Shown in pieces: positions 22,811 to 48,548 of a DNA stretch of 64,000 bases. The translations under genes and the position numbers were made by a program. This stretch comes from Alphaproteobacteria bacterium UBA2903 (lineage in GTDB: Bacteria > Pseudomonadota > Alphaproteobacteria > CAAGCB01 > CAG-977). Below the pieces are notes generated by a model. The model had not been told where the DNA came from, did no database searches, and worked only from the letters and a program-made list of their open reading frames with translations. Within the stretch, counting starts at the first letter, position 1, and each line of letters begins with the position of its first letter. Location: NCBI GenBank assembly GCA_002349565.1, contig DEDN01000027.1, positions 39,669 through 103,668 on the forward strand. Direction: 5' to 3'.

Positions 22811-23746
22811 TTAACCCGCATGTTCAAACGGATTGACGTTTTCGTTGTGGCTTTCCATCGTTTTACGGATGTCCAAATACATCAGCACGGGCATCGCAAC
22901 GTAAATCGACGAATATGTACCGACGATAATGCCCCACAACATAATCAAAGCGAATCCCTGCAACACCGAACCGCCCATGAACAGCATCACAACCAGCATG
23001 ATAATGGTGGACATCCCCGTCAACAAAGTACGCGGCAACATTGTATTGGTTGTTTTGTTAATCATTTCGTCAATCGGCATTTTACGGTATTTGCGCAGGT
23101 TTTCGCGCATGCGGTCATAGGACACAATCGTGTCGTTGACGGAAAAGCCCGCCAGCGTCATCAGCCCTGCGATAATCGTCATGTCGAAATCCAACTGGAA
23201 CACGGAAAACAGTCCGACGGCGATGATAATGTCGTGAACCAGCGACAGCATCGTCCCCAACGCGAATTCCCATTCAAAGCGCGTCCAAACATAAGCGGTA
23301 ATCATCAATCCCGCCAGAATGACCGCCCAAATACAGTTGCGGATAAGTTCCGCCCCCACGCGGGGACCGACCATTTCGACGCGGCGGACGGTGTATTCGT
23401 CGCCCAGCCTGTCGCGAATGACGGTCGAGATTTTCATCTGTTCCTTTTCGTTGTCTCCGCGTCCCAAAGCGGTAATCAAAGCTTCCGTTCCCTGCTCGCC
23501 GACGGGCTGCAGGTCGACGCCCAAGTCGTCCAACTTTGCGCGAAGGTCTTTCATGTCGATTTTCTGCTCGGCTTGCACTTCCATCAGCACGCCGCCTTTA
23601 AAGTCGATACCCAAATTCATGCCTTTGGTGCAAATCGACACAATCGAAACGGCAATCATCAGCAGCGAAAACACAAAAGCGATTTTGCGCGCGCCGATAA
23701 AGTTAATGTGCGTCGGTTTAATGAAATAATGAATCAGTCTGGGCAT
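22811..23746 (-). CDS. secF: Protein translocase subunit SecF
   Basis: A 311-aa protein (MPRLIHYFIKPTHINFIGARKIAFVFS...) with the SecF 6-TM architecture. Confidence 0.95.
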   Translation of the reverse strand: MPRLIHYFIKPTHINFIGARKIAFVFSLLMIAVSIVSICTKGMNLGIDFKGGVLMEVQAEQKIDMKDLRAKLDDLGVDLQPVGEQGTEALITALGRGDNEKEQMKISTVIRDRLGDEYTVRRVEMVGPRVGAELIRNCIWAVILAGLMITAYVWTRFEWEFALGTMLSLVHDIIIAVGLFSVFQLDFDMTIIAGLMTLAGFSVNDTIVSYDRMRENLRKYRKMPIDEMINKTTNTMLPRTLLTGMSTIIMLVVMLFMGGSVLQGFALIMLWGIIVGTYSSIYVAMPVLMYLDIRKTMESHNENVNPFEHAG

Positions 23747-23758
23747 TTCACATTCTCC

Positions 23759-25318
23759 TTACACATTGATTCTTTGCGGTTTGGTGAGCTTTGCCCACGC
23801 CAAAATCAGCACTTTTGTTACATAAACGGCAGTAAACACGGACGTCACCAAACCCAAGCAGGTTGTCACGCCGAAACCGCGGACGGGACCGTTGCCCAGC
23901 CAAATCAAAATCAATCCGGCAAACAAACTGGTCAAGTTCGAATCGAAAATCGCGGACGAAGCGTTTTCAAATCCCGCTTCAATCGTGTTCAAAACGGATT
24001 TGCCGTAGGCTTGTTCTTCGCGCATGCGTTCGTAAATCAAAACGTTCGCGTCGACCGCCATGCCCAAAGTCAAAGCTATACCCGCAATCCCCGGCAAAGT
24101 CAGCGTCGCGCCCAGCGCGCTCATCGCGCCGCACAGCAACAACAGGTTCAGCACCAAGGCAATATCGGCGAACAACCCGAACAAGCCGTAAGTCGCCACC
24201 ACGAACAACAGCACCAGCACCATGCCGACCACGCAGGATTTTTTGCCCGCGTCAATCGAATCCGTTCCCAATCCGGGACCGACGATGCGTTCTTCAACAA
24301 CTTCCAGCGGCGCGGGCAAAGCCCCCGAACGCAGCATCAGCGCCAAATCGTTCGCGCTCTGAACCGTAAAGCTGCCCGTAATAATGCCCGAACCGCCCGT
24401 AATCGCGGATTTGACTTCGGGCGCGGTAATCACTTTACCGTCCAAAACAATCGCCAAACGGCGTCCGACATTGTCGCGCGTCGCCGTACCGAAACGTTTT
24501 GCGCCGAACGAATTGAAACGGAAAGCGACAACGGCTTCCGCCCCTTGGAAATCGGCGCGCGCGTCGGTCAGGTGTTCACCTCCGACAATGGATTTGCGTT
24601 CAATGACGTAAAAAGCGGCGGCGGCGTCCTCGTCCCCCGGAACGACTTTGGAATCGGGAGCGATTTTGCCGCGGCGGGCGTCTTCCACACTTGTTTTTTC
24701 ATCAACAAAGTGGAACGACATTTTCGCCGTTTTGCCCAACAGCTTTTTGACTTCGTTCGGATCTTCCAGGCCGGGCAGCTGCACTTGGATGCGGTCGGAA
24801 CCCTGCCGCATAATCGACGGTTCGCGCGTTCCCAGCTGGTCGATACGGCGGCGGACGATTTCGATGGACTGATCGACCGCGGACGTTTTCATTTTCAACA
24901 AAGCCTGTTCCGTAAAGCGGACGGACAGCACGTCGCCGTTTTCCGCAACGTCCAGATTGCCTTTGTCGATTTTGCGAATCAATTCTTTGGCTTTGGCGAT
25001 TTGTTCGTCATTGACGATTTTGACCGTCAGCGCATCATCTTTGACCGACAGATTCGTATAGCGCACATTCTTTTCGCGCAAAGCGATTCGGGCGGCATCC
25101 ATGACCGCGCCCAGCTGATCCTTGACCACCTGATCCAAGTCGACCTGCAACAACAGCTGAGAACCGCCCTGCAAGTCCAAACCCAACGTCATCGGCTGCC
25201 ACCATTCGGGCAGTTTTTCCTGCTGCGCCTTAGGAATAAAGTTGGGGACGGCGAAAAACACGCCGACCGCCGTGATTATTCCGATTAAGGCGACTTTCCA
25301 TTTCGGATAGTTAAACAT
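23759..25318 (-). CDS. secD: Protein translocase subunit SecD
   Basis: A 519-aa protein (MFNYPKWKVALIGIITAVGVFFAVPNF...). Confidence 0.95.
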   Translation of the reverse strand: MFNYPKWKVALIGIITAVGVFFAVPNFIPKAQQEKLPEWWQPMTLGLDLQGGSQLLLQVDLDQVVKDQLGAVMDAARIALREKNVRYTNLSVKDDALTVKIVNDEQIAKAKELIRKIDKGNLDVAENGDVLSVRFTEQALLKMKTSAVDQSIEIVRRRIDQLGTREPSIMRQGSDRIQVQLPGLEDPNEVKKLLGKTAKMSFHFVDEKTSVEDARRGKIAPDSKVVPGDEDAAAAFYVIERKSIVGGEHLTDARADFQGAEAVVAFRFNSFGAKRFGTATRDNVGRRLAIVLDGKVITAPEVKSAITGGSGIITGSFTVQSANDLALMLRSGALPAPLEVVEERIVGPGLGTDSIDAGKKSCVVGMVLVLLFVVATYGLFGLFADIALVLNLLLLCGAMSALGATLTLPGIAGIALTLGMAVDANVLIYERMREEQAYGKSVLNTIEAGFENASSAIFDSNLTSLFAGLILIWLGNGPVRGFGVTTCLGLVTSVFTAVYVTKVLILAWAKLTKPQRINV

Positions 25319-25330
25319 AAGTCTTCCCTT

Positions 25331-25747
25331 TTATTTCTTCGTCAAAAGGTCTTTCAAGCCTTCGCCGCCTTTTTTGGCGTTGTCGTTGGCCTGCTCGTCG
25401 TTCAGCAAGCTTTTGTCGACGTTTTCTTCACGTTTTGCCAAAATGCGGTCGCGCACCACGACGACGCGCACGCCGTCCGCGATTTCAACCAGCAAATCGT
25501 TGGGATTCGACCGAATGACTTTGCCGATGATGCCGCCGTTCGTGATAATCACGTCACCGCGCGCAACGCTGGACTGCATGGTCATGTGTTCTTTCATCTT
25601 TTTCTGCTGAGGACGAATCAAAAAGAAATAAAACACAACAAAAATAACCAGAAACTGGAACAAAATCCGCAAAGGATTGGCGGCGGCCATAGCCGGATCG
25701 GCGGCAACGGCGGCGGCTTCCTGCGCAAAAGCGGGACTGATAAACAT
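25331..25747 (-). CDS. yajC: Preprotein translocase subunit YajC
   Basis: Single TM segment followed by the RGDVIITNGGIIGKV YajC signature. It lies immediately upstream of secD. Confidence 0.85.
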   Translation of the reverse strand: MFISPAFAQEAAAVAADPAMAAANPLRILFQFLVIFVVFYFFLIRPQQKKMKEHMTMQSSVARGDVIITNGGIIGKVIRSNPNDLLVEIADGVRVVVVRDRILAKREENVDKSLLNDEQANDNAKKGGEGLKDLLTKK

Positions 25748-25820: not shown

Positions 25821-28800
25821 TCAGAACTGGAACGACAAATTCGCCGAAACGGAATGCGACAGATATGACGACGCGATATCGGCGTCGTATTTTGCCGACA
25901 GAGAGATTTTTCTGCCGAATATCCAATAAACTTCCGCCCCCGCATTGAACGTCAGGGCGTCGGGTTTTGCGCCTTCAACGGTATAGCTTGCACCGTTTGA
26001 CAAAGCAACCTCGGCTTTGTCGGCGGAACGCGAAATGTCGTAAGCCGCCCCCACATTCAGGTTCATGCCCGTTTTCGTCCATTTGGTCTGCTTCAAGGGC
26101 AGCTCCCAGCGGTTATCCACGCTCAGCGTCAGCGTTTTAAAGGACTGCGCCGCGACCTTTTGTCCCGCGGAATCTTCGCGTGCGTCAAGATTTGCCGCAC
26201 TGTAGCGCAATCCGACAGAGGGATTGTAGACATCAAAATTGCCCCCTGCCGTGATTTGCACCCCGTATTGCTTGGCGTCGTAAGTGTCCGACAGCTTCAA
26301 AGTACCGACAGTCTTGTCTTCATCGTACGCCCCCGCCCCGAAGTTGACGATTGCCGACAGGTAAGTTTCGTTCGGCTTGAACGTGCCGTAAACGAACAGC
26401 GTGTTTGACGTAAACGTCGTTTTACGATTCAAGGCGGTAATGTCCGTCGTCGTGTGCGCATATCCGACGCCTGCCGCCGCAATATCCATCATCACCGTGT
26501 CCAGTCCGACGGTAAAGCCCGTGCTTGTCCCCGAAAAACCGTCGGGTTTTCCGTCGTCTTTGTACGTCGTTTTGTTCAGCAAGGTTTCCGCCCAAACGCT
26601 TGCGGTCGGAGTCCGCCAGTTTTGGTATTCGGCCAATCCGTTCGACCAATAGTTTTCGTACGGCTTGCCGCGGACGGACGAACGCGCAGCGCCCCTGCCG
26701 TAAGCTTTTTGATAATACTTGCGCGCATCGTAATAGCTCGATCCGCCCGATCTGCCGCGCCGCATCCCGCGCATCAGCTTTTGATCGCGTCTGAAGCCGT
26801 AAGAGCTTCTGCCCAGTTTGTCATGCAACGCCGTCAAGCGTTTCACCGTCATGGAGTTTATCACTCTCTGCGACCGCAAATGCGCCGCCGACACAGCCCC
26901 CGACACATCGGGCGCCGCCGCCGTCAAACCGTCCAAAAAGCTTTGCTTGTCCGATTGTTCCAGACGGTTCAGCTCATCCGCCAGGTCGTAAGTTTTGTCG
27001 CCTTCATCGAAAGGCGGATGATCCAGCAGTCCTTCCGCCGTATTTTGCTGATTTTTGTTGCCGCCCGCGTTTCCGGCGTTTTCCGCCGACGTATGAAGCT
27101 TTGCTATTCGATAGTTCCCGTTGCTTTCCGCCGTTATTTTGTATTTTTCGTTTGCGACTTCGGCAAACGCGCCGTTTTGAGAACCGTCGAACAGCTTGAA
27201 CACAACCCCGTTCTTGGGGATATAAGTGTTGTACTCGACTTCAATGGACAAAGCCGAATTGGACACCGTCGTACCGCCCGTGATTTTACCGTGTCCGACG
27301 CCCGTCGCATTGCCGTTGCCGTCCGTCGCATTTTTGCCGATTTGCAGCTTCAGCGTCCCGTTTTCCATTGTAAAGGCATTGGCGGTAATTTGATTTTTCC
27401 CGATATTCAAAGTCCCGCCCGACACAGCCAAAGTTCCGATATTCGCCTGAGAAAGCACGGTATCCGACCCGTTCAGCCGCAAAACGCCCGCCCCTGACAA
27501 GCTGCCGATAGTCGCCGCCGCGTTGTTCAACGTCAACCTGTTTTCGACCGCCGCGCTTCGCACCGTCAAAGTCCCGCCATTGATAACGCCGTCCGTTCCC
27601 GTTTGCTTCAGATTTGCCACGCTCAAGCCGTTTTCGACATCGACGCGCCCGCCGTCTTTCAGCGTCAAGCCGTTGACAGAAGCCGTCTGCGCCGTCGCCT
27701 GCCCCGACAATTCGATTTCCGCCACGCTCAAATTCGCGCCCAATACGCTGCCCGTTCCCGTCAAAGCAAGCGTCCCGTCGCCGGCAACCGTACCGCCCGA
27801 CGCAACACTGACCGTCGGCACGCTCAGCCGTTGACCCGCGTTGATTTTAACCGCCCCGCCCTTTCCGCCGAACGTCAGCCCGCCGAATGCCGCATCGGAA
27901 ACGACTGTCGCCGTTCCCGCTTTCGCGTCCGTTCCGATTTGCAAAGTGCCGCCGAAGTTTGCGCCTAAAACCGCATCGCCCGCCGCAATCAGCGTACCGT
28001 TACCCGCAATGTCGCGCGTTAAATTCAGCGATCCGTTCACCGTCAGACCGCCGCTCAGAGTCAAAGCGCCGCTTCCCCCGAAATCGAGCGTGTTGACCGT
28101 CGTATCGTTCGTCAAAACCAGCCCCGCGTTGATTTGAAGCGTATCGACATCCGCCTGCGCCGTCAGCTCTCCGTCGTGCGCCCAAATCAGCTTTGTTCCC
28201 GACAGTTTTCCGCCTGCGTTTACAAACGCCGCATCCACCGTCAAAGTGCCGAAAGACACCGTTCCGCCGTTCAGCGTCAGATTCAAAGCGGACAGCGCGT
28301 AATCCGTTTTCAAGTTCAGCAATCCGTCCGTCATTGTTATGCCCGCGCTGTTCAAAACAGAGTTTTCCAGCGAAAGCACACCGTTTTTTTCGACTTCCAG
28401 CGTACCGTTTTCGATTGTTTTCGCCGCCAAACCGCCCGACACTTTGACCGTGCCGCCGTCCATGGTCAGCTTGTCCGCTTTCAAAACGCCCGACCCGAAG
28501 ATTTTACCGTTTTTCATCGACAGTTCCGCTATCGACACGTCGCCGTTTTCACCTGCGCCGACACCGCCGCCGTTTTCGACCGTCAAAGTCGGCAGAACCG
28601 TTTTTCCGTTGAACAAAGCCGTCGCTTTTTCCCCGACGACAATTTTCGTTCCGTTCACGGCGGAACCGAACACGCTGTCCCCGTTTGTCAGTTTCAGCGT
28701 GCCTTCGCCCGTAATTTTGTTGCCGTCGCCGACTGTCGTGATTTTGGACACGCTGAAAGTGCCGTTTTTGATATTCAGCGTACCGCCCGTTTTGTCGCCG

Positions 28801-29507
28801 AAGCGGAAGTTTTTAACGTTGGTGTCCGCCGTAATGGTGACAGTTCCGCGCATGACTTGCAATCCGCCCAATTCACCGAATTCGCCCGCATTGCCCGCAA
28901 AAGTCAAACTGGTTTCGTTCAGCAGGCTCAAGTATCCCGCGCCCGTTATCGTCAACCCCGTCGGCAAAGCCTGAGAACTGCCCAAATCCAGCCCGAAAGC
29001 GGCATCTTCGGCAATGGTTACCGTATTGTTCGTTCCCGTAAAGCCGTAAGCGTTCAGTTCACCCGTTGCGATGACCAGCTTTGCCCCGTCCGCCAAAGTC
29101 ATATTTTCAACGTCGCCCGTCGTGCCGTTAAACGTAAACGTCCCCTCGTTGACATTCAAAGCATCGACATCCATTTTGCCGTTGAAAGCGGCATTCCCCG
29201 CCAAAGTCAGCGTTCCGCCCCTCAACGTTGACGGCGCATCGCCCGATTGCAGGGAATCGACCGTCAAAACGCCGCTCCAATCAACCGACGCGTTGTTCAG
29301 CTTCAAGTTTTTGATGGCTGCCGATCCGAAAGCCGCCGACGCTCCGTCCAACAGCAGCAGCCCGTCACCCGAAGCCGCAATGCCGTCCTTGACGGATTTT
29401 GTGATTGTCAGCGTCTTGCCTGCATTGATGATTACGTCGGCATTCAGCGCGCCGACCGTCGAATCCCCCGTAATAGTCGCCTGTCCGCCGCTCAAAGTTC
29501 CCAGCAC
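25821..29507 (-). CDS. Autotransporter, C-terminal fragment (passenger repeats plus beta-barrel translocator)
   Basis: It has no signal peptide, Gly/Thr-rich beta-helical repeats and a C-terminal barrel ending ...SANLSFQF. The annotated start is a GTG in the middle of the passenger. This ORF is very likely continuous with 29492-34501 (see findings). Confidence 0.8.
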   Translation of the reverse strand: MLGTLSGGQATITGDSTVGALNADVIINAGKTLTITKSVKDGIAASGDGLLLLDGASAAFGSAAIKNLKLNNASVDWSGVLTVDSLQSGDAPSTLRGGTLTLAGNAAFNGKMDVDALNVNEGTFTFNGTTGDVENMTLADGAKLVIATGELNAYGFTGTNNTVTIAEDAAFGLDLGSSQALPTGLTITGAGYLSLLNETSLTFAGNAGEFGELGGLQVMRGTVTITADTNVKNFRFGDKTGGTLNIKNGTFSVSKITTVGDGNKITGEGTLKLTNGDSVFGSAVNGTKIVVGEKATALFNGKTVLPTLTVENGGGVGAGENGDVSIAELSMKNGKIFGSGVLKADKLTMDGGTVKVSGGLAAKTIENGTLEVEKNGVLSLENSVLNSAGITMTDGLLNLKTDYALSALNLTLNGGTVSFGTLTVDAAFVNAGGKLSGTKLIWAHDGELTAQADVDTLQINAGLVLTNDTTVNTLDFGGSGALTLSGGLTVNGSLNLTRDIAGNGTLIAAGDAVLGANFGGTLQIGTDAKAGTATVVSDAAFGGLTFGGKGGAVKINAGQRLSVPTVSVASGGTVAGDGTLALTGTGSVLGANLSVAEIELSGQATAQTASVNGLTLKDGGRVDVENGLSVANLKQTGTDGVINGGTLTVRSAAVENRLTLNNAAATIGSLSGAGVLRLNGSDTVLSQANIGTLAVSGGTLNIGKNQITANAFTMENGTLKLQIGKNATDGNGNATGVGHGKITGGTTVSNSALSIEVEYNTYIPKNGVVFKLFDGSQNGAFAEVANEKYKITAESNGNYRIAKLHTSAENAGNAGGNKNQQNTAEGLLDHPPFDEGDKTYDLADELNRLEQSDKQSFLDGLTAAAPDVSGAVSAAHLRSQRVINSMTVKRLTALHDKLGRSSYGFRRDQKLMRGMRRGRSGGSSYYDARKYYQKAYGRGAARSSVRGKPYENYWSNGLAEYQNWRTPTASVWAETLLNKTTYKDDGKPDGFSGTSTGFTVGLDTVMMDIAAAGVGYAHTTTDITALNRKTTFTSNTLFVYGTFKPNETYLSAIVNFGAGAYDEDKTVGTLKLSDTYDAKQYGVQITAGGNFDVYNPSVGLRYSAANLDAREDSAGQKVAAQSFKTLTLSVDNRWELPLKQTKWTKTGMNLNVGAAYDISRSADKAEVALSNGASYTVEGAKPDALTFNAGAEVYWIFGRKISLSAKYDADIASSYLSHSVSANLSFQF

Positions 29508-32500
29508 CTTGCCGCCCGTGGTAAACGGCCGCCGTTTGTCAGCGTCAGTTCGCCGACGCCCGAAACGGATGTCGCTCTTAAAGCCCCGTTGACCGTCAGC
29601 GATCTGTTGACGACAACGTCCGCCCCCGCCGTCAAGTCGTTCAAGCTTGCGGTATCAAAAACCGCTCCGCCGGTCAGCTTCAGATTTCCGCCCGACACCG
29701 AGTTTCCCGCCGCATTCAGCTGCGCAATAGTCAGCGTCGCCCCTTTCTCTATGGTCAAAGTGCCGCCCGTCGCCGTAAATTCAAAAGCCTTGAATACGCT
29801 GTTCGCCTTAATTTCCGCCGTTGTTTGCCCGACGCGAACCGTCCCGTTGAACGTCCCGCCGAATGTTCCTTTTGCCCCCAAAGTCAGCGTTCCTTCCCCC
29901 GCATCGACCAAATGTCCGCTGTAATCCAATTCGTTGTTGACGGTCAGCTGTCCGTTCAGCGTCAAAGAGCCGCTACCGCCGAATGTCAAATGCGACAGCG
30001 TGTAATCGCCCGTTTTCGTAATTTCGGTGTTTTGTGCGGTCAGATTCAACGTCCCGCCGCCCGTAATGTTTCCGCCGCTCAGAATACCGTGCGACAGCGA
30101 CAGAACCGCACCGTCGGCAAGAACGATTGTTCCCTGATTCAATTCCATTTCATTCAGGGAATAGTTCCCGTTAAACGTCGCGCGGGCGTTTGCGCCGTCC
30201 ATGACAAAGCGCAGCATTTTCGTCGAATCGCCCGCTTTGAAATCGGCTTGAGCCGAATCAATCAGCCGCAAGGTCGCTTCCCCTGCATTGATTGCCCCCG
30301 AAAACGATTTGGATATGGTCAGCGTTTTGTCGGCTGCCACTTTGGCGGTAACGCCGTCTTTGATTTTTAAAGTGCCGATCGTCGAATTGTCGTAAAAGGT
30401 CGTTTCCCCGTTGACAGTCAGATCGGCTAACGTTTTGCTTCCCGTGGCGAGCATTCCGCCCGTGGCGAGCATTCCGCCCGCGCCGACGGTCAAAGAACCG
30501 TCGCCGTAAACATAATAAGGCCCGCCCGACAGGTTCAAAGCGTCCAAAACCGCCAAGCTTGCCCCGGCTTCGATTGCGATGTTGCCGCCCGCAATGAATT
30601 TTTGAATGACGGAACCGCGTTTCCCGCTTGTAAAAGTCGTCAATGCTTCGGTGGTCAAAGTGCCGTTGTTCATCATCGCGTTGGCAAGCGTGCTTTCGGC
30701 TTTCAAAATCAAATTGCCGCCGCTGCTTTCCAAAGTGTTGCCCGCCCGCATGGACAATCCGTTGTTTATTGTCAAAGTCCCGTTCTGCAGTTCCAGCGTA
30801 CCGGCATCCGCTGTCATGAAAATCACATCGTCAATCGTCATATCGTTGGCGATTGTCGCCGTTCCTCTGTAGATTTTCAGCCCTTTCAGCGTCAAATCGT
30901 CCGAACCGCCGAACGTCATGCTCGTGTTGTTCAGCAAGCCGAGAGTCCCCGCACCGCTGATTTTAACGTTGTCCATATTGGACGCCGAGGCATCGAAATC
31001 CAGTTCCGCCCCGCTGCTTAACACGATTTCGTTGCTTGCGGCTTTGAAATCCGAACTTTTGACCGTCAACGCCCCCTTGACGGTCAGTTTGGCATCGTTC
31101 GTTCCGGAAAACCGCAGCTTGTCCACGGTATTGGAGCCGCCCGACAAATCCAGCGTCAAAGAAACGTTCCCGCCGTCCGCCGTCAGCGCTAAAGTCCCGA
31201 AATCGGCAAACGTGCCGCCGATCATCCCCGAACGCCCTTTGCCGTCAGCCGCCAGCTCCAGCGTGCCTTTGCCCGTAAAGTCGGCATAAGGAATGCGGCT
31301 TTGATCCGCCGCGCTGTTGAACGACAGTTTTCCGTCAATGTTGATTTTCGCGTTTTTAAACGCGTTGCCGCCGGTCGATCGGAAAGTGTTCGCCAAAACA
31401 TCGCCCTTGACATTGATGATTGCCGCCCCGGACGAACGCAGATCAAGGTCTAGCCAGTACAGCGTCATATCGGATGACAGGTTTGCCGTGCCGCCGCCGT
31501 TGACTTTGACGGTATGATAAGTCGCATTGTTTTCGGCAATGTTCAAAACGGCGTTTTTCTGAACGATCAATTCAGCCCTGTCCGACGATCCTTTGACGTC
31601 CAAAGCGGCGGAAATCGCCGAATCGTTTCCGACCGTAAACAAAGCCGAATGGGATTCGTGTTCCGTAGAAACGTCCCACTCGAAATCATCCAGATACAGC
31701 GTCCCGCCCCGTTCGAAAACGATTTCGGATTGAACTTCCGTATTGCCCGTATTTTCCTGCCAAAAATAAATTTTTGATTTTCCGTCGGTCAGGCGGTCGG
31801 TTTGCGCGGTTTTAAAACGCACCGACGCCCCGTCCAGCTTCAAAACGGCATTGTTTTTCAGGGACAGGGAATCTTTGATAATGAATGCCGTGTTGACGCT
31901 CGGTCCCGTCACGGTCGTTCCGTCCAGCGTCAGATTGTTCAGCGTGAACGACTGCGCCCCGCCCTTTGTCGTCGCAGACGAATACCCCGTCAAAATTATC
32001 GTGTCGGCATAAACGTCGCCCGAAAAATTCAGCGTGTCCGCCGCGCTTTTCGCCGTCGCGGTCAGCGTCCCGAACGATTTGTTCCCTCCTATGACGGAAA
32101 ACAGCCCCGAACCGTTCAGAACAAGCGTTCCTTCGCCGTAAAGACCGTATTTCGACAGATCCAACGCGCTGTTGACTTCCAAAGTCGTTCCCGCTTCGAC
32201 GGTAACGTCGCCGTTCGCAGTGTAAGTGCCGATTGTGGACTTGCCGCCCTTGAACGTCGCCTTTTGCGCGGTCAACGTTCCCAAAACCGTATTGCTGAAC
32301 GAACTGTCGCCCTGAACAATCAGCGCGCCCTTCGCCCCGTCGATTTTATTGCCCGTCCCCATGGTTACGCCGGATTTCACGGTCAGCGTTTTGCCGCTGT
32401 CGATACCGAGCGTTCCGCCCGTATCCTGCATGAATTTCAGTTTGTCGATGGAAATGCCGGCTTTGATGACCGCCTCTGCTTTGCCGTCGATTTCCAGCCC

Positions 32501-34501
32501 TTCCAGCGTCAGATAGCCGACCGCCGCTTTGCTCAGTTCCAATTTCGAAGAATTCAGCAGCCCCAACGTCCCCGTGCCGATGATATTGGCGGGCAAAGTC
32601 CCTTTGACGTCGAAATAAAGCGTCGAACCGCTGTTCAATTTGATTTTTCCGTTGCCCGACAAAGCGTTGACCGTCAGCTTCCCCGCCAACAAATTGAATG
32701 TTTCGTCGGATGAAAACACCAAATTTTTGATAATGCTGCTGCCGTTTGCGTTGTTGGCGTTGCTCTGCCCCGTAAAATTCAAATCAGCCCCAAGGCGCAG
32801 CGTCCCCAAATTGTCGAAAACGCCCGTAAAGCCAATAGCGGATTGGATGAAAACCGTTCCGTTTCCCGTCAGCGTTCCCAGCCACTTCGTTGCGTCATAT
32901 CGGGAAAAGGGTTTGTTCCAAACAACGACATCCGAAACGTTCAGCTGACCGTCAACCTTGTAAGTCGGAAAGATGTCGGCGGTTTGCACGATTTTTGACG
33001 GATTGAACACCGCTCCGGACTTGACGGTGCTTGTTTTCGCCGTATCCGCGTAAAGGTAATCCGCTTTGACCGTTCCGCCCGAAACGACCCAGTTGCCGCC
33101 GCTGACACCGTAAAAAGCCGAATTGTTCAGATCGACGTATCCTTTGACGATGAGCTTTTTGTATTTGTCGGCATCCGCGGCAAGAGTCAGCGCCGTTGAA
33201 TCGCTGTAGTTTCCGATAGTTGCATAAACGTCTGACGTCCCTGTAACCGCCGTCAGATCCAGCGCCGACAAATCCAGCGTTCCGCCGTTTTTATATAACA
33301 GCGTGCTGTGCAAAGACATGGCAAGTTTTGATGCCCCTTTGTGGGTAACATCCCCCAAAACCAAAACGCCGTCTCTTCCGACCGTCAAGGTCGAATTGCT
33401 CAGCGTCAGTTTGTCGATAATCGTTTTTCCTTTCGAATAAACCGTCGCTTTGCTGTTTGTCAGCAACAAATCTTCGATTTTTCCGTTTGTGGCGGCAAAA
33501 TTAACGTGTTCCGACCCCGCCCCGCCGACGGACATTTTCTGCACATAAAAAGTGTGCGTACCGTCTGTATATTCGCTATGCACAGGAGTACCTATCAGAA
33601 CAGAATTATCCGTTGTTGAAATGTTCAATTCTTTCAGCGGATCGGAAAAAGTGTCGGACGCGCTGTCATATTGCCCGACATTGTGAAACTCGGCTAATCC
33701 GCCTGTAGCAACATACGCCGTAATCGTATGATTGCCCGATAAATAAAGTTCCTCAACAGACGACGCACCTGCGAAGTAAATACTCCCTACTGTAATATCG
33801 TTGTTCAGTATCACCCTTCCGGTATACAGAAACTCATTGACAAAATCCCACTTTCCGTTGATGGTTGAAGTTCCGCCATTGGAAAAACGAATCTCGTTTG
33901 CTCGAACATTTTCGGAATTGAAAACAAGCGTTCCGTCGAATTGATATATTCCGTCCCCGTTTAAGGAACCGCTGAAGTTGATATCGTTCGCTCTGAAAAG
34001 GATAATAGAGTCTGTAGTAGCCGAAAAACTTGCATTTTTTCCGACACTAATAGTATTACCGGCAAAAAATTCAAGACTCCTTTCGGAACCGGAACTGTTA
34101 GTAAAATTCCCGGATTCTATTTGTATGTTACGGGCTTCAAATCCAAAATAATACATACTGTGTTCAAGTGTGCCTAAATTTTTGAAAACAAGATCACCGC
34201 TGGCCATATCATTTGGACTTTTCAGCCCGACGGCAAATGAGCCACCGTCCTCTGTTGTAAAATCGTGCGAACTTCCGTTTGTTGTGTCAATAGTCACCGT
34301 TGTCGCATTTTTCAGTAAATCGGACGGAGCTGTTCTGGGAAACTTTCCGCCGTTTTGAATCAGCAAAGCTCCGTTCCCTTGGTCAATAATGCTGATATCT
34401 TCGGCTATTGCCGGACACGCGAACAGCGCCGTTGTCGTCAACAGCGTTTTCAAAAATCCGATTTTTCTTTTCCGTCGCGTCATAGATATTCTGTCTGACA
34501 A
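29492..34501 (-). CDS. Autotransporter, N-terminal fragment (signal peptide plus 1,640-aa passenger, no barrel)
   Basis: Extended signal peptide MSDRISMTRRKRKIGFLKTLLTTTALFACPAIA, then Gly/Thr/Asn-rich passenger repeats. The ORF ends at a TGA 11 codons after a frame break. Confidence 0.8.
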   Translation of the reverse strand: MSDRISMTRRKRKIGFLKTLLTTTALFACPAIAEDISIIDQGNGALLIQNGGKFPRTAPSDLLKNATTVTIDTTNGSSHDFTTEDGGSFAVGLKSPNDMASGDLVFKNLGTLEHSMYYFGFEARNIQIESGNFTNSSGSERSLEFFAGNTISVGKNASFSATTDSIILFRANDINFSGSLNGDGIYQFDGTLVFNSENVRANEIRFSNGGTSTINGKWDFVNEFLYTGRVILNNDITVGSIYFAGASSVEELYLSGNHTITAYVATGGLAEFHNVGQYDSASDTFSDPLKELNISTTDNSVLIGTPVHSEYTDGTHTFYVQKMSVGGAGSEHVNFAATNGKIEDLLLTNSKATVYSKGKTIIDKLTLSNSTLTVGRDGVLVLGDVTHKGASKLAMSLHSTLLYKNGGTLDLSALDLTAVTGTSDVYATIGNYSDSTALTLAADADKYKKLIVKGYVDLNNSAFYGVSGGNWVVSGGTVKADYLYADTAKTSTVKSGAVFNPSKIVQTADIFPTYKVDGQLNVSDVVVWNKPFSRYDATKWLGTLTGNGTVFIQSAIGFTGVFDNLGTLRLGADLNFTGQSNANNANGSSIIKNLVFSSDETFNLLAGKLTVNALSGNGKIKLNSGSTLYFDVKGTLPANIIGTGTLGLLNSSKLELSKAAVGYLTLEGLEIDGKAEAVIKAGISIDKLKFMQDTGGTLGIDSGKTLTVKSGVTMGTGNKIDGAKGALIVQGDSSFSNTVLGTLTAQKATFKGGKSTIGTYTANGDVTVEAGTTLEVNSALDLSKYGLYGEGTLVLNGSGLFSVIGGNKSFGTLTATAKSAADTLNFSGDVYADTIILTGYSSATTKGGAQSFTLNNLTLDGTTVTGPSVNTAFIIKDSLSLKNNAVLKLDGASVRFKTAQTDRLTDGKSKIYFWQENTGNTEVQSEIVFERGGTLYLDDFEWDVSTEHESHSALFTVGNDSAISAALDVKGSSDRAELIVQKNAVLNIAENNATYHTVKVNGGGTANLSSDMTLYWLDLDLRSSGAAIINVKGDVLANTFRSTGGNAFKNAKINIDGKLSFNSAADQSRIPYADFTGKGTLELAADGKGRSGMIGGTFADFGTLALTADGGNVSLTLDLSGGSNTVDKLRFSGTNDAKLTVKGALTVKSSDFKAASNEIVLSSGAELDFDASASNMDNVKISGAGTLGLLNNTSMTFGGSDDLTLKGLKIYRGTATIANDMTIDDVIFMTADAGTLELQNGTLTINNGLSMRAGNTLESSGGNLILKAESTLANAMMNNGTLTTEALTTFTSGKRGSVIQKFIAGGNIAIEAGASLAVLDALNLSGGPYYVYGDGSLTVGAGGMLATGGMLATGSKTLADLTVNGETTFYDNSTIGTLKIKDGVTAKVAADKTLTISKSFSGAINAGEATLRLIDSAQADFKAGDSTKMLRFVMDGANARATFNGNYSLNEMELNQGTIVLADGAVLSLSHGILSGGNITGGGTLNLTAQNTEITKTGDYTLSHLTFGGSGSLTLNGQLTVNNELDYSGHLVDAGEGTLTLGAKGTFGGTFNGTVRVGQTTAEIKANSVFKAFEFTATGGTLTIEKGATLTIAQLNAAGNSVSGGNLKLTGGAVFDTASLNDLTAGADVVVNRSLTVNGALRATSVSGVGELTLTNGGRLPRAARCWEL

Positions 34502-34648: not shown

Positions 34649-36376
34649 ATGTTCAAACTCGCCCGCTTTTTGGCAAACTATAAAAAAGAATGCGTCATCG
34701 GTCCTTTGTTCAAGTTTTTGGAAGCCTGCTTCGAACTGTTCGTGCCGCTGGTCATGGCGGGAATTATCGACATCGGCATCAAAAACGGCGACACCGCTTA
34801 TATTTACAAAATGGGCGGGCTGATGGTGGCTTTGGGACTGCTGGGGCTGATTTGCTCCCTGACCGCTCAGTTTTTCGCCGCCAAAGCGTCCATGGGCTTC
34901 GGCACGGCGCTGCGCAGCGCGCTGTTTCGCCACATCGGCGATTTGTCCTATGCCGAATTGGACGAAGTCGGCACGCCGTCGCTGATTACGCGGCTGACGG
35001 GCGACATCAATCAGGCGCAATCGGGCGTAAATTTGGCTTTGCGGCTGTTTTTGCGCTCCCCCTTTATCGTTGTCGGCGCGATTGTCATGGCGTTTTTCGT
35101 CGACGTGAAGCTGGCGGCGATTTTCCTAATTGCCTCGCCGCTGATCGGCGCGGTGATTTGGTTTGTCATGGCAAAGTGCATCCCGTATTACAAACGCATC
35201 CAATCCCTGATGGACAAAGTGTCCCTGCTGGTGCGCGAAAACCTGACGGGCGTGCGCGTCATCCGCGCGTTTTCCAAGCAAAAGGAAGAACACAAAGCCT
35301 TTGAAAACACTTGCGTTTCCCTGATGGACGAGCAGGTAACGGCGGGCAAAATCGCGGCTTTGCTGAACCCCGCAACGTATGTCGTCGTCAATCTGGCAGT
35401 CATCGCGATTGTGTGGGGCGGCGGCTTTCAAGTCAACGCGGGCGATTTGACGCAGGGCGAAGTCATCGCGCTTGTCAATTATATGTCGCAAATTCTGCTG
35501 GCTCTGGTCGCTTTGGCAAACTTGATTGTCGTGTTTACGAAAGCGTCCGCTTCCGCCGCGCGCATCAACGACGTGTTCGCGATTTTCCCGACGGTAAAGG
35601 AAAACAAAAACACGGCAAGCCCCGCAACGGACGCGCCCTGCGTGCGGTTCGAAAACGTGTCGTTCGCCTATAAAAACGCCGAAGCGGAAGCCCTTTCAAG
35701 CATTGACTTCGCCGTGCCTGCGGGGGCGACGGTCGGCATCATCGGCGGCACGGGATCGGGCAAAACGACCTTAATCAACCTGATTGCCCGCTTTTACGAC
35801 ACAACCAAAGGGCGCGTTTTAATCGACGGCGCTGACGTTCGGGATTACGCCTTTGCCGACCTGCGCCGCAAAATCGGAATCGTCCCGCAAAAAGCCGTAT
35901 TGTTCAAAGGTACCATCCGCGACAATATGCGCTGGGCAAAAGCCGACGCGACGGACGCGGAAATCTGGCAGGCTTTGAAAATCGCGCAGGGCGAAGAGTT
36001 TGTTTCATCCAAACCCGAACAGCTTGACACGCCGATAGCGCAAGGCGGGCGCAACCTGTCGGGCGGGCAAAGGCAAAGACTGACCATCGCGCGGGCTTTG
36101 GTCGGTTCGCCCGATATTTTGATTTTGGACGACAGCGCGTCGGCTCTGGACTTCGCAACCGATGCGAAACTGCGCAAAGCGATAAAGAACGAAACAAAAG
36201 GCGCGACGGTGTTTCTGGTATCCCAGCGCATTTCGACGGTGCGCGGCGCGGACTTTATCGTCGTTTTGGACGACGGCAAAGCGGTCGGCATCGGCACGCA
36301 CGGCGATTTGTTCGAAAACTGCCCCGTTTACCGCGAAATCTGCCTGTCACAGCTGGAAAAAGAGGAGGCGGCGTAA
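34649..36376 (+). CDS. ABC exporter, fused permease-ATPase (half-transporter A)
   Basis: A 6-TM domain followed by Walker A GGTGSGKTT, the signature LSGGQRQR and Walker B ILILDD. The start is at the ATG at 34649, not the upstream TTG. Confidence 0.9.
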   Translation: MFKLARFLANYKKECVIGPLFKFLEACFELFVPLVMAGIIDIGIKNGDTAYIYKMGGLMVALGLLGLICSLTAQFFAAKASMGFGTALRSALFRHIGDLSYAELDEVGTPSLITRLTGDINQAQSGVNLALRLFLRSPFIVVGAIVMAFFVDVKLAAIFLIASPLIGAVIWFVMAKCIPYYKRIQSLMDKVSLLVRENLTGVRVIRAFSKQKEEHKAFENTCVSLMDEQVTAGKIAALLNPATYVVVNLAVIAIVWGGGFQVNAGDLTQGEVIALVNYMSQILLALVALANLIVVFTKASASAARINDVFAIFPTVKENKNTASPATDAPCVRFENVSFAYKNAEAEALSSIDFAVPAGATVGIIGGTGSGKTTLINLIARFYDTTKGRVLIDGADVRDYAFADLRRKIGIVPQKAVLFKGTIRDNMRWAKADATDAEIWQALKIAQGEEFVSSKPEQLDTPIAQGGRNLSGGQRQRLTIARALVGSPDILILDDSASALDFATDAKLRKAIKNETKGATVFLVSQRISTVRGADFIVVLDDGKAVGIGTHGDLFENCPVYREICLSQLEKEEAA

Positions 36377-38109
36377 TGCAAAAGAATTTACTGAAACGTT
36401 TGCTGTCTTTCACCCGCCCTTACCTGTCCTATCTGGCTTTGGCGCTGTTTTTCGCAGTCGTCAGCGTGTCGATGACGCTGTACGCCCCCGTGCTGACGGG
36501 ACGCGCGATTGATTTGGTCACAGGCAAAGGCGCGGTCGATTTTCAGGCGTTGAAAGCCGTTTTGGAAGTCTTGGCGGTCGTCGTCGCAATAGCCGCCGCG
36601 TCCCAATGGCTGATGGGGCTTTGCACGAACAAAATCACCTATCTGACCGTGCGCGACATCCGCGTCAAAGCGTTCGACCGATTGCAAAAAGTCCCCCTGC
36701 GCTTTATCGATACGACGCCGCACGGCGACATCCTCAGCCGCGTCGCGGTTGATGCGGAACAAGTCGCGGACGGGCTTTTAATGGGCTTTACACAGCTGTT
36801 CACGGGGCTTGTCACGATTTTCGGCACAATCGGCTTTATGGCGGTTATCAACGTCAAAATCACGCTGCTTGTCGTATTTGTTACGCCTTTGTCGCTGTTC
36901 GTCGCGAATTTCATCGCCAAACGCACGTTCAAGTTTTTCAAGGTGCAATCCGAAACGCGCGGGGAAATGACGGCTTTAATCAACGAAACCGTCGGCAACT
37001 TAAAGCTTGTCAAAGCGTTCGGCTATGAAGCGAAATCCCGCGAAAAGTTCGAGGAAATCAATGCCCGTTTGCAGGATTGCGGGGTCAAGGCGCTGTTCTT
37101 TTCATCCATCACCAACCCCTGCACGCGCTTTGTCAACGGCGTGGAGTATACGCTGGTCGGCATTGTCGGGGCGTTAAGCGCGGTTGCGGGCGTGTTGACC
37201 GTCGGGCAGCTGTCGTGCTTTTTAAGCTACGCGAACCAGTACACCAAACCGTTCAACGAAATATCGGGCGTGATTGCCGAACTGCAAAGCGCGCTTGCCT
37301 CGGCAAAGCGGCTGTTTGAGATTATCGACGCGACGCCCGAAACGCCCGACGCGGCGGATGCGAAAGTTTTGGGACACGCGGACGGCACGGTCGATTTGGA
37401 ACACGTTTTCTTTTCTTACGTTCCGGAAATCAAGCTGATCGAGGATTTGTCCCTGAACGTCAAAGCGGGGCAGAAAATCGCCATTGTGGGCAAGACGGGC
37501 TGCGGCAAAACGACGCTGATTAACTTGCTGATGCGGTTTTACGACATCAATTCGGGCAGGATTTCGGTTTCCAAAACAAACGTCGAAAATATGACGCGCG
37601 ACAGCCTGCGCGCGGCGTTCGGCATGGTGCTGCAGGAAACGTGGCTGAAGTCGGGAACGGTGCGGGAAAACATCGCTTACGGCAAACCGCTTGCGTCCGA
37701 TTACGAAGTTGTTTCCGCCGCCGTTGCCGCGCATGCGGACGGCTTTATCAAACGCCTGCCCGACGGTTACGACACCGTTATCGGCGAAGACGGCGGCAGC
37801 CTGTCCCAAGGACAAAAACAGCTGTTGTGCATTGCGCGCGCGATGCTGTCCCTGCCCTCGATGCTGATTTTGGACGAAGCGACCAGCTCGATTGACACGC
37901 GCACGGAAATTTACGTTCAGAAAGCCTTTGACGAAATGATGAAAGGGCGGACAAGCTTTGTCGTCGCGCACAGGCTTTCGACCATTCGCCGCGCCGATTT
38001 GATTTTGGTGATGGACGCGGGGCATATCGTCGAACGCGGCACACACGCCGAATTGTTGGAAAAAGGCGGCTTTTACGCGAATCTGTACAACAGCCAGTTT
38101 GCCGCGTGA
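36376..38109 (+). CDS. ABC exporter, fused permease-ATPase (half-transporter B)
   Basis: Walker A GKTGCGKTT, signature LSQGQKQL and Walker B LILDEATS. Its start overlaps the stop of the upstream gene by 1 nt (taATG), which fits a heterodimer. Confidence 0.9.
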   Translation: MQKNLLKRLLSFTRPYLSYLALALFFAVVSVSMTLYAPVLTGRAIDLVTGKGAVDFQALKAVLEVLAVVVAIAAASQWLMGLCTNKITYLTVRDIRVKAFDRLQKVPLRFIDTTPHGDILSRVAVDAEQVADGLLMGFTQLFTGLVTIFGTIGFMAVINVKITLLVVFVTPLSLFVANFIAKRTFKFFKVQSETRGEMTALINETVGNLKLVKAFGYEAKSREKFEEINARLQDCGVKALFFSSITNPCTRFVNGVEYTLVGIVGALSAVAGVLTVGQLSCFLSYANQYTKPFNEISGVIAELQSALASAKRLFEIIDATPETPDAADAKVLGHADGTVDLEHVFFSYVPEIKLIEDLSLNVKAGQKIAIVGKTGCGKTTLINLLMRFYDINSGRISVSKTNVENMTRDSLRAAFGMVLQETWLKSGTVRENIAYGKPLASDYEVVSAAVAAHADGFIKRLPDGYDTVIGEDGGSLSQGQKQLLCIARAMLSLPSMLILDEATSSIDTRTEIYVQKAFDEMMKGRTSFVVAHRLSTIRRADLILVMDAGHIVERGTHAELLEKGGFYANLYNSQFAA

Positions 38110-38193
38110 AACGTCGCCGCGGCTATTCTGCGTTTTCTTTCGTCATTATTAACGGCACAGAAAGTGCCTACAACAAAACTTCTCATTTTTAAA

Positions 38194-39579
38194 TCAAAAT
38201 CTGAAATAGATGAACGGATTGTATGTTGAAGCAGCCATTGACGCCACAGCCAAAACAAACAGCAAAACCAGTCCCAAATTGACTAACACCAGCCCTGCCT
38301 TGTTGCGTACAAACAAAATATTTTTGCATACGGGCATAGCACACAACGCCGCAATCACAAAAGCGATAATCTCTATATTGTCAATGTAATAAGCCGTCGT
38401 ATAAGAAATATCGCGACCGCGAACAAATCCGAACATATTTTTCAGATATTCAACAGCATACGACAGCGTGTCCGCGCGAAAAACAACCCACCCGATAACA
38501 ACGACGAAAATCGCGTAAGCATGGTGCAAAAACGATTTTGTTTCATTTTTATGCCAACCCGTCAATTTTTCGACAATAATGAACAAACCGTGCCATAATC
38601 CCCAAACAACAAAAGTCCAACTGGCACCATGCCACACGCCTGTCGCCAGAAAAACAATGAACAAGTTAAGCAAATTACGTTTTTTGCCAACCCGATTTCC
38701 GCCTAAAGGAATGTACAGATATTCCTTAAACCACGTTGACAAAGAAATATGCCATCTGTGCCAAAATTCCGTAATGGATTTTGAAATATAGGGATAGTTG
38801 AAATTTTCCAAAAATTTGAATCCGAAAATCGCTCCCAATCCGATAGCCATATCGGAATACCCGGAAAAATCATAAAACAGTTGAAACGAATAAGCTATTG
38901 CCCCGATCCAAGCCGTCAAAGCATTAAATTGTTCAACCGGTTGAGAAAAAATTTTATCGGCAACCGCGCCCAGAGTGTTCGCTATCAGTATTTTTTTCGC
39001 CAGTCCGATGATAAAGCGTTTTATACCGTACACCGCTTTTTCGCTAGACTCTTCCCGATTTGAAATTTGATCGGCGACATCATGATATTTGACAATCGGT
39101 CCCGCAACCAGTTGAGGAAATAATGTAATGTACAAAGCCAATTTTGCCAAATCCCTCTGCGCCTGTGCTTCACGGCGATACACGTCAATCAGATAAGACA
39201 TTGCTTGAAAAGTATAAAAAGAAATGCCGATAGGCATAACAACGTCAATCAGCGAAATATCCGCTGAACACAGCGCATTAATATTTTCAACAACGAAATT
39301 GAAATATTTAAAATAAAACAAAAAACTTAAATCCGCGCAAATCGTGCATGACAAAATCGACCTTGCTTTTTTGCGGTATTTTTCAATACATAGTGCGCCC
39401 GCCCAATTGATAATGATCGTCGCAATCATTATCGCCAGATAATCGGGTTCGCCCCATGCGTAAAATACAATACTCGCAACAAGCAATACATGATTCTTCA
39501 GCTCGCGGCGCGACAAAAAATACAATGTTGCAACGATCGGCAAAAACAAAAACACAAACGTCATCGATGAAAAAAGCAT
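38194..39579 (-). CDS. MBOAT-family membrane O-acyltransferase (AlgI/DltB-like)
   Basis: A multi-TM protein with the motif FWHRWHISLSTWFKEYLYIPLGGNR. The gene is low in GC. Confidence 0.85.
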   Translation of the reverse strand: MLFSSMTFVFLFLPIVATLYFLSRRELKNHVLLVASIVFYAWGEPDYLAIMIATIIINWAGALCIEKYRKKARSILSCTICADLSFLFYFKYFNFVVENINALCSADISLIDVVMPIGISFYTFQAMSYLIDVYRREAQAQRDLAKLALYITLFPQLVAGPIVKYHDVADQISNREESSEKAVYGIKRFIIGLAKKILIANTLGAVADKIFSQPVEQFNALTAWIGAIAYSFQLFYDFSGYSDMAIGLGAIFGFKFLENFNYPYISKSITEFWHRWHISLSTWFKEYLYIPLGGNRVGKKRNLLNLFIVFLATGVWHGASWTFVVWGLWHGLFIIVEKLTGWHKNETKSFLHHAYAIFVVVIGWVVFRADTLSYAVEYLKNMFGFVRGRDISYTTAYYIDNIEIIAFVIAALCAMPVCKNILFVRNKAGLVLVNLGLVLLFVLAVASMAASTYNPFIYFRF

Positions 39580-39583
39580 GGCA

Positions 39584-41251
39584 TTATTTCCTCATAAAAT
39601 CTGGGACTTTTTGATTTTCAAGATATGGGAGATACCGTTCAACTATTTCAAAAACGATAATATCCGATTGCTTTAAAATTTGTTCATCACTAAGTTTAAA
39701 TTCTCTTCGCCATTCAAAAACACTTTCTCTAAAACACATATAATAATAATCAAGCATAGATTTTGAAAACGAGTCCCTAAGAGAAAACAAATTTATTTTA
39801 TTGTCCTTGTTAACACAGTGAACACTATCTCTGCTTTTTGTATCAACGCAATTGTCGCTTTGTACCGTCAAATGTTTATACTTAATATTTTCATACAAGC
39901 CTTTCCTTGTATAAATCATTGAATTTAAATCTCCTTTCGGATACGAAACGAGTTTGAACTCAACATTTAATGACGGCAATTCTGGAAAATCTTTTTTCAT
40001 TTCATCCCACAAAGCCTGATATCCGATAAACGCTCCGTACTGATTCCAATGAGTATCATTCTTCCAATACAATAATCCGTCTTTTTTCGCCGATAAAAGA
40101 TTGTCCCTCGGATAAATGACGTTAATGTCTGAATTTGATTTTATATAATCTACTAATTGATATGTTCTGCTTAACCTATCATCGTTCAATTTTTTATAAG
40201 CAGTCGAAAAGTATTCTCCATATATTTTATTTTTGTCAGGAGCAATAAATAAATAGAATTTCTTTCTGTTTTTTTTGCAGAAAGAATTAATTTCATCAAG
40301 ATACATTAATATTGAATTAAGCTGCTTTTTATTATATAAAATCTTATTTTGCCAATTTTGAATCCCATTATCAAGTTTCAAAAAAATAAAGCCATCTTTT
40401 CCCATCATAGCTTTGTTATTTTCTATACGACTGTTAATGAAATTTTTAAAAACAGACCATAATGACTGCAGTCTTTTTCTGCCGTTAAATCTGTCATTAA
40501 ACCACGCCTCAAAATCGCGCCCGTATTTCAAATTCATCCCGTTTTTCGTTATCAAAGACGGACGCTTGGCTAACATTCTGTTTTCCGTAACGGATTTGTC
40601 GGCGCGATCGATTTTCGACATTGGAACAAACAGCACGGCACACACAACAATAAGCAACGCAACATCAGCCGCAGGAATGCGCGTTTTGATTTTTAAAATC
40701 ATTCCCGCCAACTGCCACCCCGCCAAACAAGACAGCGCAAAAACGCTGAACAGCAGCAATCCGTCAATTTCAATTCCGTGCTTTAATTTCAACGGTCTTT
40801 TCCAAATAAAATACGGATCCTTTTGCGATGAATTTAATTCCAGTATATCGTTTTCAATCTTGTACGAATCGATTTGATTTGGATGAACGTCTGTTTTTCC
40901 TTGCAGCAAATAAACGGTTTTATCGCCTTTTATTTTCAAATTCTTAATCGTTATATTCCCGGGAACGGTTCCAACATCCAGTCTGAATCTTTCGATATAT
41001 TTCACGGGCAACAGCAGCTTGACCTTTCTATAATCAGAATTCAAAACCGCTTTTTGAGTTACGACCTTATTTCCGTTGAATTTCTCGCCATCCGTTTCCG
41101 TATAAAATACTTGAAACGCAATGGAAGAATCGCCCGTTCCTTTGGCAAGAAATTCCACCTCGATCGTCGAAGTCTTGTATAGCCGCGCGCACAACAAACA
41201 ACATACCGTTGCAAAAAAACAGGCTAAACCTAAACGGGATTTGTTAAGCAT
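39584..41251 (-). CDS. AlgX/AlgJ/DltD-like periplasmic O-acyltransferase partner (DHHW family)
   Basis: A signal anchor followed by the KNDTHWNQYGA (D-x-H-W) motif. The gene lies immediately upstream of the MBOAT gene and is low in GC. Confidence 0.6.
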   Translation of the reverse strand: MLNKSRLGLACFFATVCCLLCARLYKTSTIEVEFLAKGTGDSSIAFQVFYTETDGEKFNGNKVVTQKAVLNSDYRKVKLLLPVKYIERFRLDVGTVPGNITIKNLKIKGDKTVYLLQGKTDVHPNQIDSYKIENDILELNSSQKDPYFIWKRPLKLKHGIEIDGLLLFSVFALSCLAGWQLAGMILKIKTRIPAADVALLIVVCAVLFVPMSKIDRADKSVTENRMLAKRPSLITKNGMNLKYGRDFEAWFNDRFNGRKRLQSLWSVFKNFINSRIENNKAMMGKDGFIFLKLDNGIQNWQNKILYNKKQLNSILMYLDEINSFCKKNRKKFYLFIAPDKNKIYGEYFSTAYKKLNDDRLSRTYQLVDYIKSNSDINVIYPRDNLLSAKKDGLLYWKNDTHWNQYGAFIGYQALWDEMKKDFPELPSLNVEFKLVSYPKGDLNSMIYTRKGLYENIKYKHLTVQSDNCVDTKSRDSVHCVNKDNKINLFSLRDSFSKSMLDYYYMCFRESVFEWRREFKLSDEQILKQSDIIVFEIVERYLPYLENQKVPDFMRK

Positions 41252-41260
41252 ATTTTCTCC

Positions 41261-42698: not shown

Positions 42699-42712
42699 GC
42701 CGCCTCCCGCTT

Positions 42713-48285: not shown

Positions 48286-48548
48286 TACGAATTACCATCT
48301 TTAACGTCCATCCAACGGGGAATTGATATCAGAAACGGACGTTTGTGATACGTTTCGCCGTCCGTTTCCCGCAAAAACAAAAAAAGTCGAAACTCCTTGT
48401 TTTAAAAGAATATTCATAATTTCGTGATTTATAGGACGCGGCACAATTTATAGCAAAAAATGTCTTGATTTAAACGTCCCTTTATTTGCATACGTTCGCA
48501 CCCCAATTCTGATAAACAACCCGAAAACAAACCAAGGAGATTCAGCCA

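Follow-up and report, generated by a model that had tools for sequence, protein, structure and literature searches.

The window analysed here is a 64,000-nt stretch of contig DEDN01000027.1 from Alphaproteobacteria bacterium UBA2903, and positions are those of the window throughout. Its minus strand carries two open reading frames (29492..34501 and 25821..29507), which lie in different frames and overlap by 16 nt; the coordinates given for them in a first-pass annotation of the same sequence were reproduced. The upstream ORF is 1,669 aa long when counted from a TTG codon; gene callers start it at the ATG at 34483, which gives 1,663 aa. The downstream ORF has a GTG start and encodes 1,228 aa, and its frame is open back to 29654. 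The features of the locus are collected in Table 1.

The upstream product starts with MTRRKRKIGFLKTLLTTTALFACPAIA|ED, which shows a basic n-region, a hydrophobic core and an A-I-A (AxA) motif by inspection and hydropathy, and it reads as a predicted Sec signal peptide. This segment is conserved in five relatives (L001, L002, L010, L011 and P0004). No barrel is present in the upstream ORF, which gave no match in Pfam or NCBIfam. The downstream ORF ends in a translocator barrel, and on inspection its N-terminus shows nothing resembling a signal peptide; it too found no match in NCBIfam. The division of signal peptide and barrel between the two ORFs, proposed previously, is thus borne out by inspection and by Pfam.

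Table 1. Positions of the autotransporter gene, its lesions and its neighbours in the window
Feature	Position	Strand	Description
Whole autotransporter pseudogene	25821..34483	-	Single 2,887-aa ORF when one G is restored; intact orthologous ORFs in L001, L011 and P0004
Signal-peptide coding region (predicted)	34403..34483	-	MTRRKRKIGFLKTLLTTTALFACPAIA, then ED...; sequence inspection
Upstream fragment	29492..34483	-	Signal peptide and ~1,630 aa of passenger; tail of 12 out-of-frame residues (LPRAARCWEL, TGA)
Downstream fragment	25821..29507	-	~970 aa of passenger modelled as a beta-solenoid, followed by linker and barrel; without signal peptide
Type Va translocator beta-barrel, PF03797	25884..26597	-	Pfam (E 1.7e-24), AF2, Foldseek; protein end ...SANLSFQF
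Single-base deletion site	29522..29523	-	CCGTTT^ACC in the window; intact relatives read CCGTTTGACC (CGT TTG ACC = R L T)
Segment earlier read as a 17-bp insertion	29511..29527	-	Native sequence for the conserved hexapeptide (R/S)LTT(G/D)G, 17 of its 18 bases
Second inactivating change, GGA to TGA	28937	-	Sublineage L007/L009 (SAMEA5383800), in the downstream fragment
Frame-breaking 59-bp deletion	28159..28218	-	L004 (ERZ1038261), between 10-bp direct repeats CGCAGGCGGA at 28218 and 28159
yajC (25331-25747), secD (23759-25318), secF (22811-23746)	22811..25747	-	Same strand, downstream of the autotransporter gene
Two ABC exporter genes (575 and 577 aa)	34649..38109	+	Divergent, upstream of the autotransporter promoter region

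The autotransporter stop lies at 25821 and the yajC start at 25747, so that the gene precedes yajC-secD-secF on the coding strand, the reverse of the order given in the first-pass annotation. A promoter and terminator scan was uninformative, with no terminator-like site between the autotransporter stop and yajC.

Barrel and passenger of the predicted protein

Residues 971-1208 of the downstream ORF match the autotransporter beta-domain family PF03797 over the full profile (positions 1-255 of 255, E 1.7e-24). When the last 600 aa were modelled with AF2, a barrel was placed there with a pLDDT of 70-87, preceded by modelled helices that are mostly below 50-70, and the C-terminal residue is phenylalanine (...LSFQF). 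The best Foldseek matches of the modelled barrel in the PDB are the beta-domains of EstA, AaaA, EspP, NalP, Hbp and BrkA (E 1e-13 to 1e-10), with a target TM of 0.6-0.73 for isolated barrel domains and ~0.34 for EstA and AaaA as full-length chains. The modelled C-terminal ~260 residues superpose on EstA (3kvn), EspP (2qom, 3slo), NalP (1uyn), Hbp (3aeh) and BrkA (3qq2), although sequence identity to these barrels is only 12-17%. When the barrel region was used as a phmmer query against PDB sequences, only chance matches to antibodies were returned.

The passenger was modelled over residues 1-600 of the downstream ORF, using a 13-sequence alignment. The AF2 model has a mean pLDDT of 84 with short beta strands throughout, and its only low-confidence part is the first ~50 residues past the break, which would fit a solenoid that has been cut mid-way. 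The modelled segment is an all-beta solenoid. Its best fold matches are beta-helical passengers of self-associating and SPATE autotransporters, those of Ag43 (7koh), Pet (4om9), IgA1 protease (3h09) and Hap (3syj), and these matches are weak (E of at least 2.7e-3, TM ~0.2; best E 2.7e-3, TM ~0.22). Unlike those proteins, the window passenger lacks a protease or any other globular domain, belongs to no Pfam family and, at 2,600+ aa, is several times longer. Six passenger pieces scanned against Pfam at E <= 5 gave no detectable family, the hints being at noise level (ChlamPMP_M 0.007, PATR 0.23).

In all likelihood the region represents one classical (type Va) autotransporter gene with a product of ~2,887 aa. 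The predicted order of domains would be a Sec signal peptide, a very long beta-solenoid passenger, a linker and a C-terminal barrel of the PF03797 type.

Intact relatives and the missing base

Six relatives have the reading frame open across the junction. Scanning a single genome for each species gave L001, the human-gut MAG 'Alphaproteobacteria bacterium HGM16787', which shares 97.9% identity with the window across 14 kb and has a single intact ORF of 2,777 aa. An exhaustive HMMER scan gave P0004, a single intact protein of 2,738 aa, and P0005. In L011 a single gene of 3,282 aa is called, and L002 and L010 are metagenome contigs. Where complete, the intact orthologs are thus 2,738 to 3,282 aa long. 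The downstream ORF of the window aligns by HMMER to residues 1539-2738 of P0004. Among the 814 cluster representatives found by the exhaustive scan at E <= 1e-3, most match in the barrel only, and a handful of proteins of 1,750-2,740 aa share passenger sequence too, each being a single large protein with the barrel at its C-terminus. A word-filtered protein search with the C-terminal 430 aa gave three hits, and one with a 378-aa query across the junction gave none, its filter of 8,000 candidates having probably been saturated by the G/T/L-rich sequence.

In L001, L011 and P0004, the signal peptide, passenger and barrel are found on one polypeptide, whereas in the window they are divided between two ORFs in different frames. 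This agrees with the first-pass proposal of one giant autotransporter that has been inactivated, and none of the orthologs is arranged as two separate genes.

The base responsible was located by aligning the junctions. All six intact relatives share the consensus TLT(N/K)GG-(R/S)LTT(G/D)G-KVLGTLSGG. In L001 the corresponding codons are GGC GGC CGT TTG ACC ACG GAC GGC AAG GTG, and the window allele (CCGTTTACC) differs only in lacking the G of TTG. On the aligned sequences the lesion is a 1-nt deletion, converting CGT TTG ACC to CGT TTA CC. Inserting a G between 29522 and 29523 yields a stop-free ORF of 2,887 aa, the product of which reads ...TLTNGGRLTTGGKVLG... across the restored junction. The missing G is the sole frame-breaking indel in the 14-kb alignment to L001; the remaining gaps fall outside the listed ORFs or are clustered near the 3' end of yajC, where they sum to a net three bases. 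The frameshift aside, neither half contains a stop codon in the window itself, suggesting that the deletion event was recent.

Strains differ considerably in the passenger. Its N-terminal two-thirds are mosaic between strains, with only patches of 87-92% identity left, and the last ~1,380 aa show ~98% DNA identity. In the downstream ORF, the codon differences between the window and L001 comprise 19 synonymous and 34 non-synonymous changes, a comparison in which the window branch is not separable. Such a ratio appears to show the weak constraint typical of surface proteins, and it was not counted toward decay.

Recurrence of the deletion and the nature of the split

Single-base indels are a common class of assembly error, and the source of the window is apparently metagenomic, so the missing G might be a consensus error in an intact gene. 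If so, then it would not be expected in other assemblies of essentially the same strain, which were retrieved by exact-protein look-ups. The deletion allele is present in three of them. ERZ1029111 (L006/L013, contig k87_...) carries it in sequence that is 100% identical to the window. The second, ERZ925099 (L008, an 88-kb k127 contig), corresponds to ERR983264 and has the deletion with 1 SNP in 20.6 kb; the project of this run, PRJEB10338, is a bovine rumen metagenome (PMC4619255). The third, ERZ28615384 (L007/L009, sample SAMEA5383800), has it with 3-4 SNPs in 16-18 kb. The identical 1,663-aa upstream product is called in L006, L007 and L008. The SNP differences in L008 and L007/L009 point to separate read sets, and the contig names (k87, k127, scaffold) indicate different assembly runs; separate assemblies that differ by SNPs speak against a single chance error in the consensus. 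The missing G also lies outside any homopolymer run, the alignment to L001 has no second indel of its kind, and one of the contigs with the deletion carries a nonsense mutation further downstream, as a real pseudogene would. An assembly artefact is therefore improbable, and the lesion, judged from the assemblies, is real and heritable. The assemblies bearing the deletion show one clone that has been sampled repeatedly, not a recurrent mutation, and they may come from related cattle cohorts.

The downstream half shows additional lesions. In L007/L009, the frameshift and a TGA codon at 28937 occur on the same contig. L004 has the 59-bp deletion listed in Table 1; its contig stops short of the junction and is otherwise 100% identical to the window, and by this identity L004 is inferred to belong to the frameshift lineage. 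Two contigs, L005 and L007, terminate at 28158 and 28180 respectively, as would be expected if the 59-bp polymorphism breaks assembly graphs. Four of the five SNPs among the near-clonal contigs fall inside the autotransporter gene (one synonymous, two missense and one nonsense), an enrichment that is only suggestive (roughly p = 0.05). From these contigs, the downstream half appears to have begun collecting further disabling mutations.

Frameshift phase variation is known for some autotransporter genes, and the first-pass annotation had allowed for an OFF phase as well as for mis-assembly. Full-length product could in principle be recovered reversibly through a slippage tract, or by recoding (programmed -1 frameshifting or transcriptional slippage), as the frame would be regained by a -1 shift at any point in 29494-29654. 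The sequence context offers little for either. The lost base is a lone G flanked by TTT and ACC, with no simple-sequence repeat or homopolymer at 29522/29523, and Tandem Repeats Finder, run over the gene, reported no repeat at the junction. No slippery heptamer of the form X_XXY_YYZ occurs in the upstream (zero) frame within 29492-29700. The only homopolymer runs in the overlap zone, T5 at 29661 and G5 at 29627, have an identical context in the intact strains. With no heptamer, repeat or homopolymer at the lesion, phase-variable silencing and programmed frameshifting are both very unlikely. In addition, the intact relatives have no repeat tract at the site and need no frameshift, and the nonsense codon, and possibly the 59-bp deletion, in sublineages imply that the downstream part is not being maintained.

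Equally hard to credit is a functional split. On that reading the two fragments would each be produced, with translational coupling at the TTGA overlap (29492-29495) giving the downstream one, and would still be active either alone or in combination. In its favour, the gene call in L008 gives the downstream product a 1,224-aa start that overlaps the upstream stop by 4 nt, and the two fragments are otherwise uninterrupted in the window. Without a signal peptide, however, the barrel of the downstream product could not reach the BAM machinery by the type Va pathway. The two-gene arrangement occurs in no relative, and the downstream fragment is further disrupted both in the frameshift sublineage (L007/L009) and in a probable member of the same lineage (L004).

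The least tenable reading is that of the first-pass annotation itself, which attributed the break to a 17-bp insertion or duplication (cgtttaccacgggcggc, correctly quoted and placed at 29511-29527) in a native ...LTNGG-KVLGTLSGG...: removing the 17 bp does restore the frame arithmetically, and the segment's end (acgggcggc) loosely resembles the preceding aacggcggc, but in all six intact relatives the segment is present as 18 bases in frame, the shorter LTNGGKVLG form occurs in none of them, and the window differs from them at the site by exactly one missing G. Direct alignment refutes this model, the repair of which would remove a conserved hexapeptide. It is also only one of many possible repairs since, with the downstream frame open to 29654, any net +1 or -2 change within ~160 nt restores the frame as well.

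[quoted passage not shown] Very probably, on the sequence comparisons above, it is a recent and genuine pseudogene in a near-clonal strain found in several metagenome assemblies, with loss of the surface adhesin. The consequences would follow from the established type Va pathway, in which a passenger needs its own barrel and the barrel needs a signal peptide to reach the BAM machinery. A single G would have been lost mid-passenger, between 29522 and 29523, in the lineage of the window. Translation from the true start would then pass through 12 out-of-frame codons (peptide tail GGRLPRAARCWEL) to a stop at 29492-29494. Sec would deliver the resulting 1,663-aa fragment into the periplasm, but with no translocator it would not cross the outer membrane. 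The remainder with the barrel, if translated at all, starting either at the GTG or at the TTG in the TTGA overlap with the stop, would have no signal peptide and should be unable to reach the outer membrane. With signal peptide and barrel on separate products, the adhesin would be lost. A residual role for the barrel-less N-terminal fragment is possible.

Comparison with known autotransporters

The case appears to match the known lineage-specific pseudogenisation of giant type Va autotransporters, of which bmaA, bmaB and bmaC of Brucella are the best documented. BmaA, BmaB and BmaC are very large classical autotransporters of Alphaproteobacteria, and their genes are split by frameshift or nonsense mutations in some lineages, with differing or extra lesions from strain to strain and passengers that vary in length between strains (PMC8111173). 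The placement of the signal peptide and barrel on separate ORFs served as the criterion for calling a bma gene a pseudogene (PMC8111173), and the window gene has its signal peptide and barrel on separate ORFs in the same way. The two cases differ in several respects. The passengers have no detectable sequence relationship, and neither PATR nor any other Pfam domain is significant in the window protein. The host of the window gene is an uncultured gut or rumen commensal known only from metagenomes and not a pathogen, and its lesion is a single 1-nt deletion that is apparently very recent. A lineage-associated presence and decay of autotransporter genes is also described in Campylobacter jejuni and C. 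coli, which are likewise gut-associated (PMC7168839); these species belong to a different phylum and their passengers are unrelated.

Loss of the adhesin may have been adaptive in the deletion lineage, either as an escape from recognition by host antibody, phage or protists, or as a saving of cost, although this is rather unlikely. If it were true, then one surface-variation hot spot would take in both the N-terminal passenger, with its mosaic structure, and the low-GC polysaccharide island that neighbours the gene. Much less likely still is that the exported, barrel-less 1,663-aa fragment has gained a new function.

For annotation, the two ORFs should be treated as one pseudogene, frameshifted by a 1-nt deletion, and not as two genes or as a gene interrupted by a 17-bp insertion; beyond annotation, the finding has little importance. 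The intact orthologs (2,738-3,282 aa), with a passenger that belongs to no Pfam family, may be of interest for the cataloguing of adhesins from the gut and rumen. The locus adds an example from an uncultured commensal alphaproteobacterium to a pattern known from Brucella, in which giant adhesins of type Va vary greatly from strain to strain and simple frameshifts often abolish them.

Variation within the adhesin gene

The signal peptide and 5′ end of the adhesin gene are 99% identical between the window and four strains of the same species (L001, L002, L010 and L011). Past this conserved 5′ end, the N-terminal passenger (29960–34410, minus strand) is a mosaic among the same strains, matching only in scattered blocks of 87–96% identity accompanied by internal, repeat-like off-diagonal matches, and the length of the adhesin protein ranges from 2,738 to 3,282 aa across strains. 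Taken together, the mosaic passenger and the variable protein length suggest that the tip of the adhesin varies by recombination or in a cassette-like manner. The passenger also carries a perfect, in-frame 18 bp tandem duplication (30441–30480; 2.2 copies) that encodes GGMLAT-GGMLAT; its counterpart in L001 is one related GGKIAT copy.

A contig otherwise identical to the window, L004 (ERZ1038261), has lost 59 bp between 10 bp direct repeats (CGCAGGCGGA). Contigs of two other assemblies end at this deletion site, suggesting polymorphism within samples.

The flanking breakpoint and a low-GC island

Beyond window position 34555, upstream of the autotransporter promoter, the window is no longer syntenic with L001 (1–2993) or L002 (1–4990). 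In both of these relatives, different genes replace the two ABC exporter genes, placing a rearrangement breakpoint at around 34555.

Further along is an island of low GC content, encoding MBOAT and ALGX proteins, a GT2 glycosyltransferase, a serine recombinase, a multi-glycosyltransferase ORF and an RgpF fragment. Strains L010 and L011 are without it, and in them the sequence at window position 38117 joins that at 48943 directly. The region has the appearance of a surface-polysaccharide island, adjoining the adhesin gene, that was gained by horizontal transfer and varies among strains. The Pfam match of the RgpF ORF covers only the C-terminal half of the profile (positions 267–503 of 503), and the ORF shares 85 nt with the beginning of the multi-glycosyltransferase ORF. 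Truncation or fusion of a gene at the island edge may have produced this RgpF ORF.

Coordinates of the island, three of its genes and the 59 bp deletion site
Feature	Window position	Strand	Basis or setting
Low-GC island, ~10.8 kb	38118–48942		GC 0.33–0.48 vs ~0.53 in flanks
Serine recombinase (Resolvase) gene	42114–42698		within low-GC island
1,593-aa glycosyltransferase ORF	42713–47494	-	
291-aa ORF, RgpF match	47410–48285	-	Pfam RgpF
59 bp deletion site	28159–28218		L004 499–508; flanked by the direct repeats

Possible host range

Parts of the window are matched at 98–100% identity in other sources (whole window compared with L001, L008 and L014). The matches include a MAG labelled as human gut (HGM16787) and bovine rumen sequence (PRJEB10338), and a further one is to a contig named RUBE20-1_SAMN11977852. 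Provided that these labels are correct, this uncultured alphaproteobacterium is present in both human and ruminant hosts.
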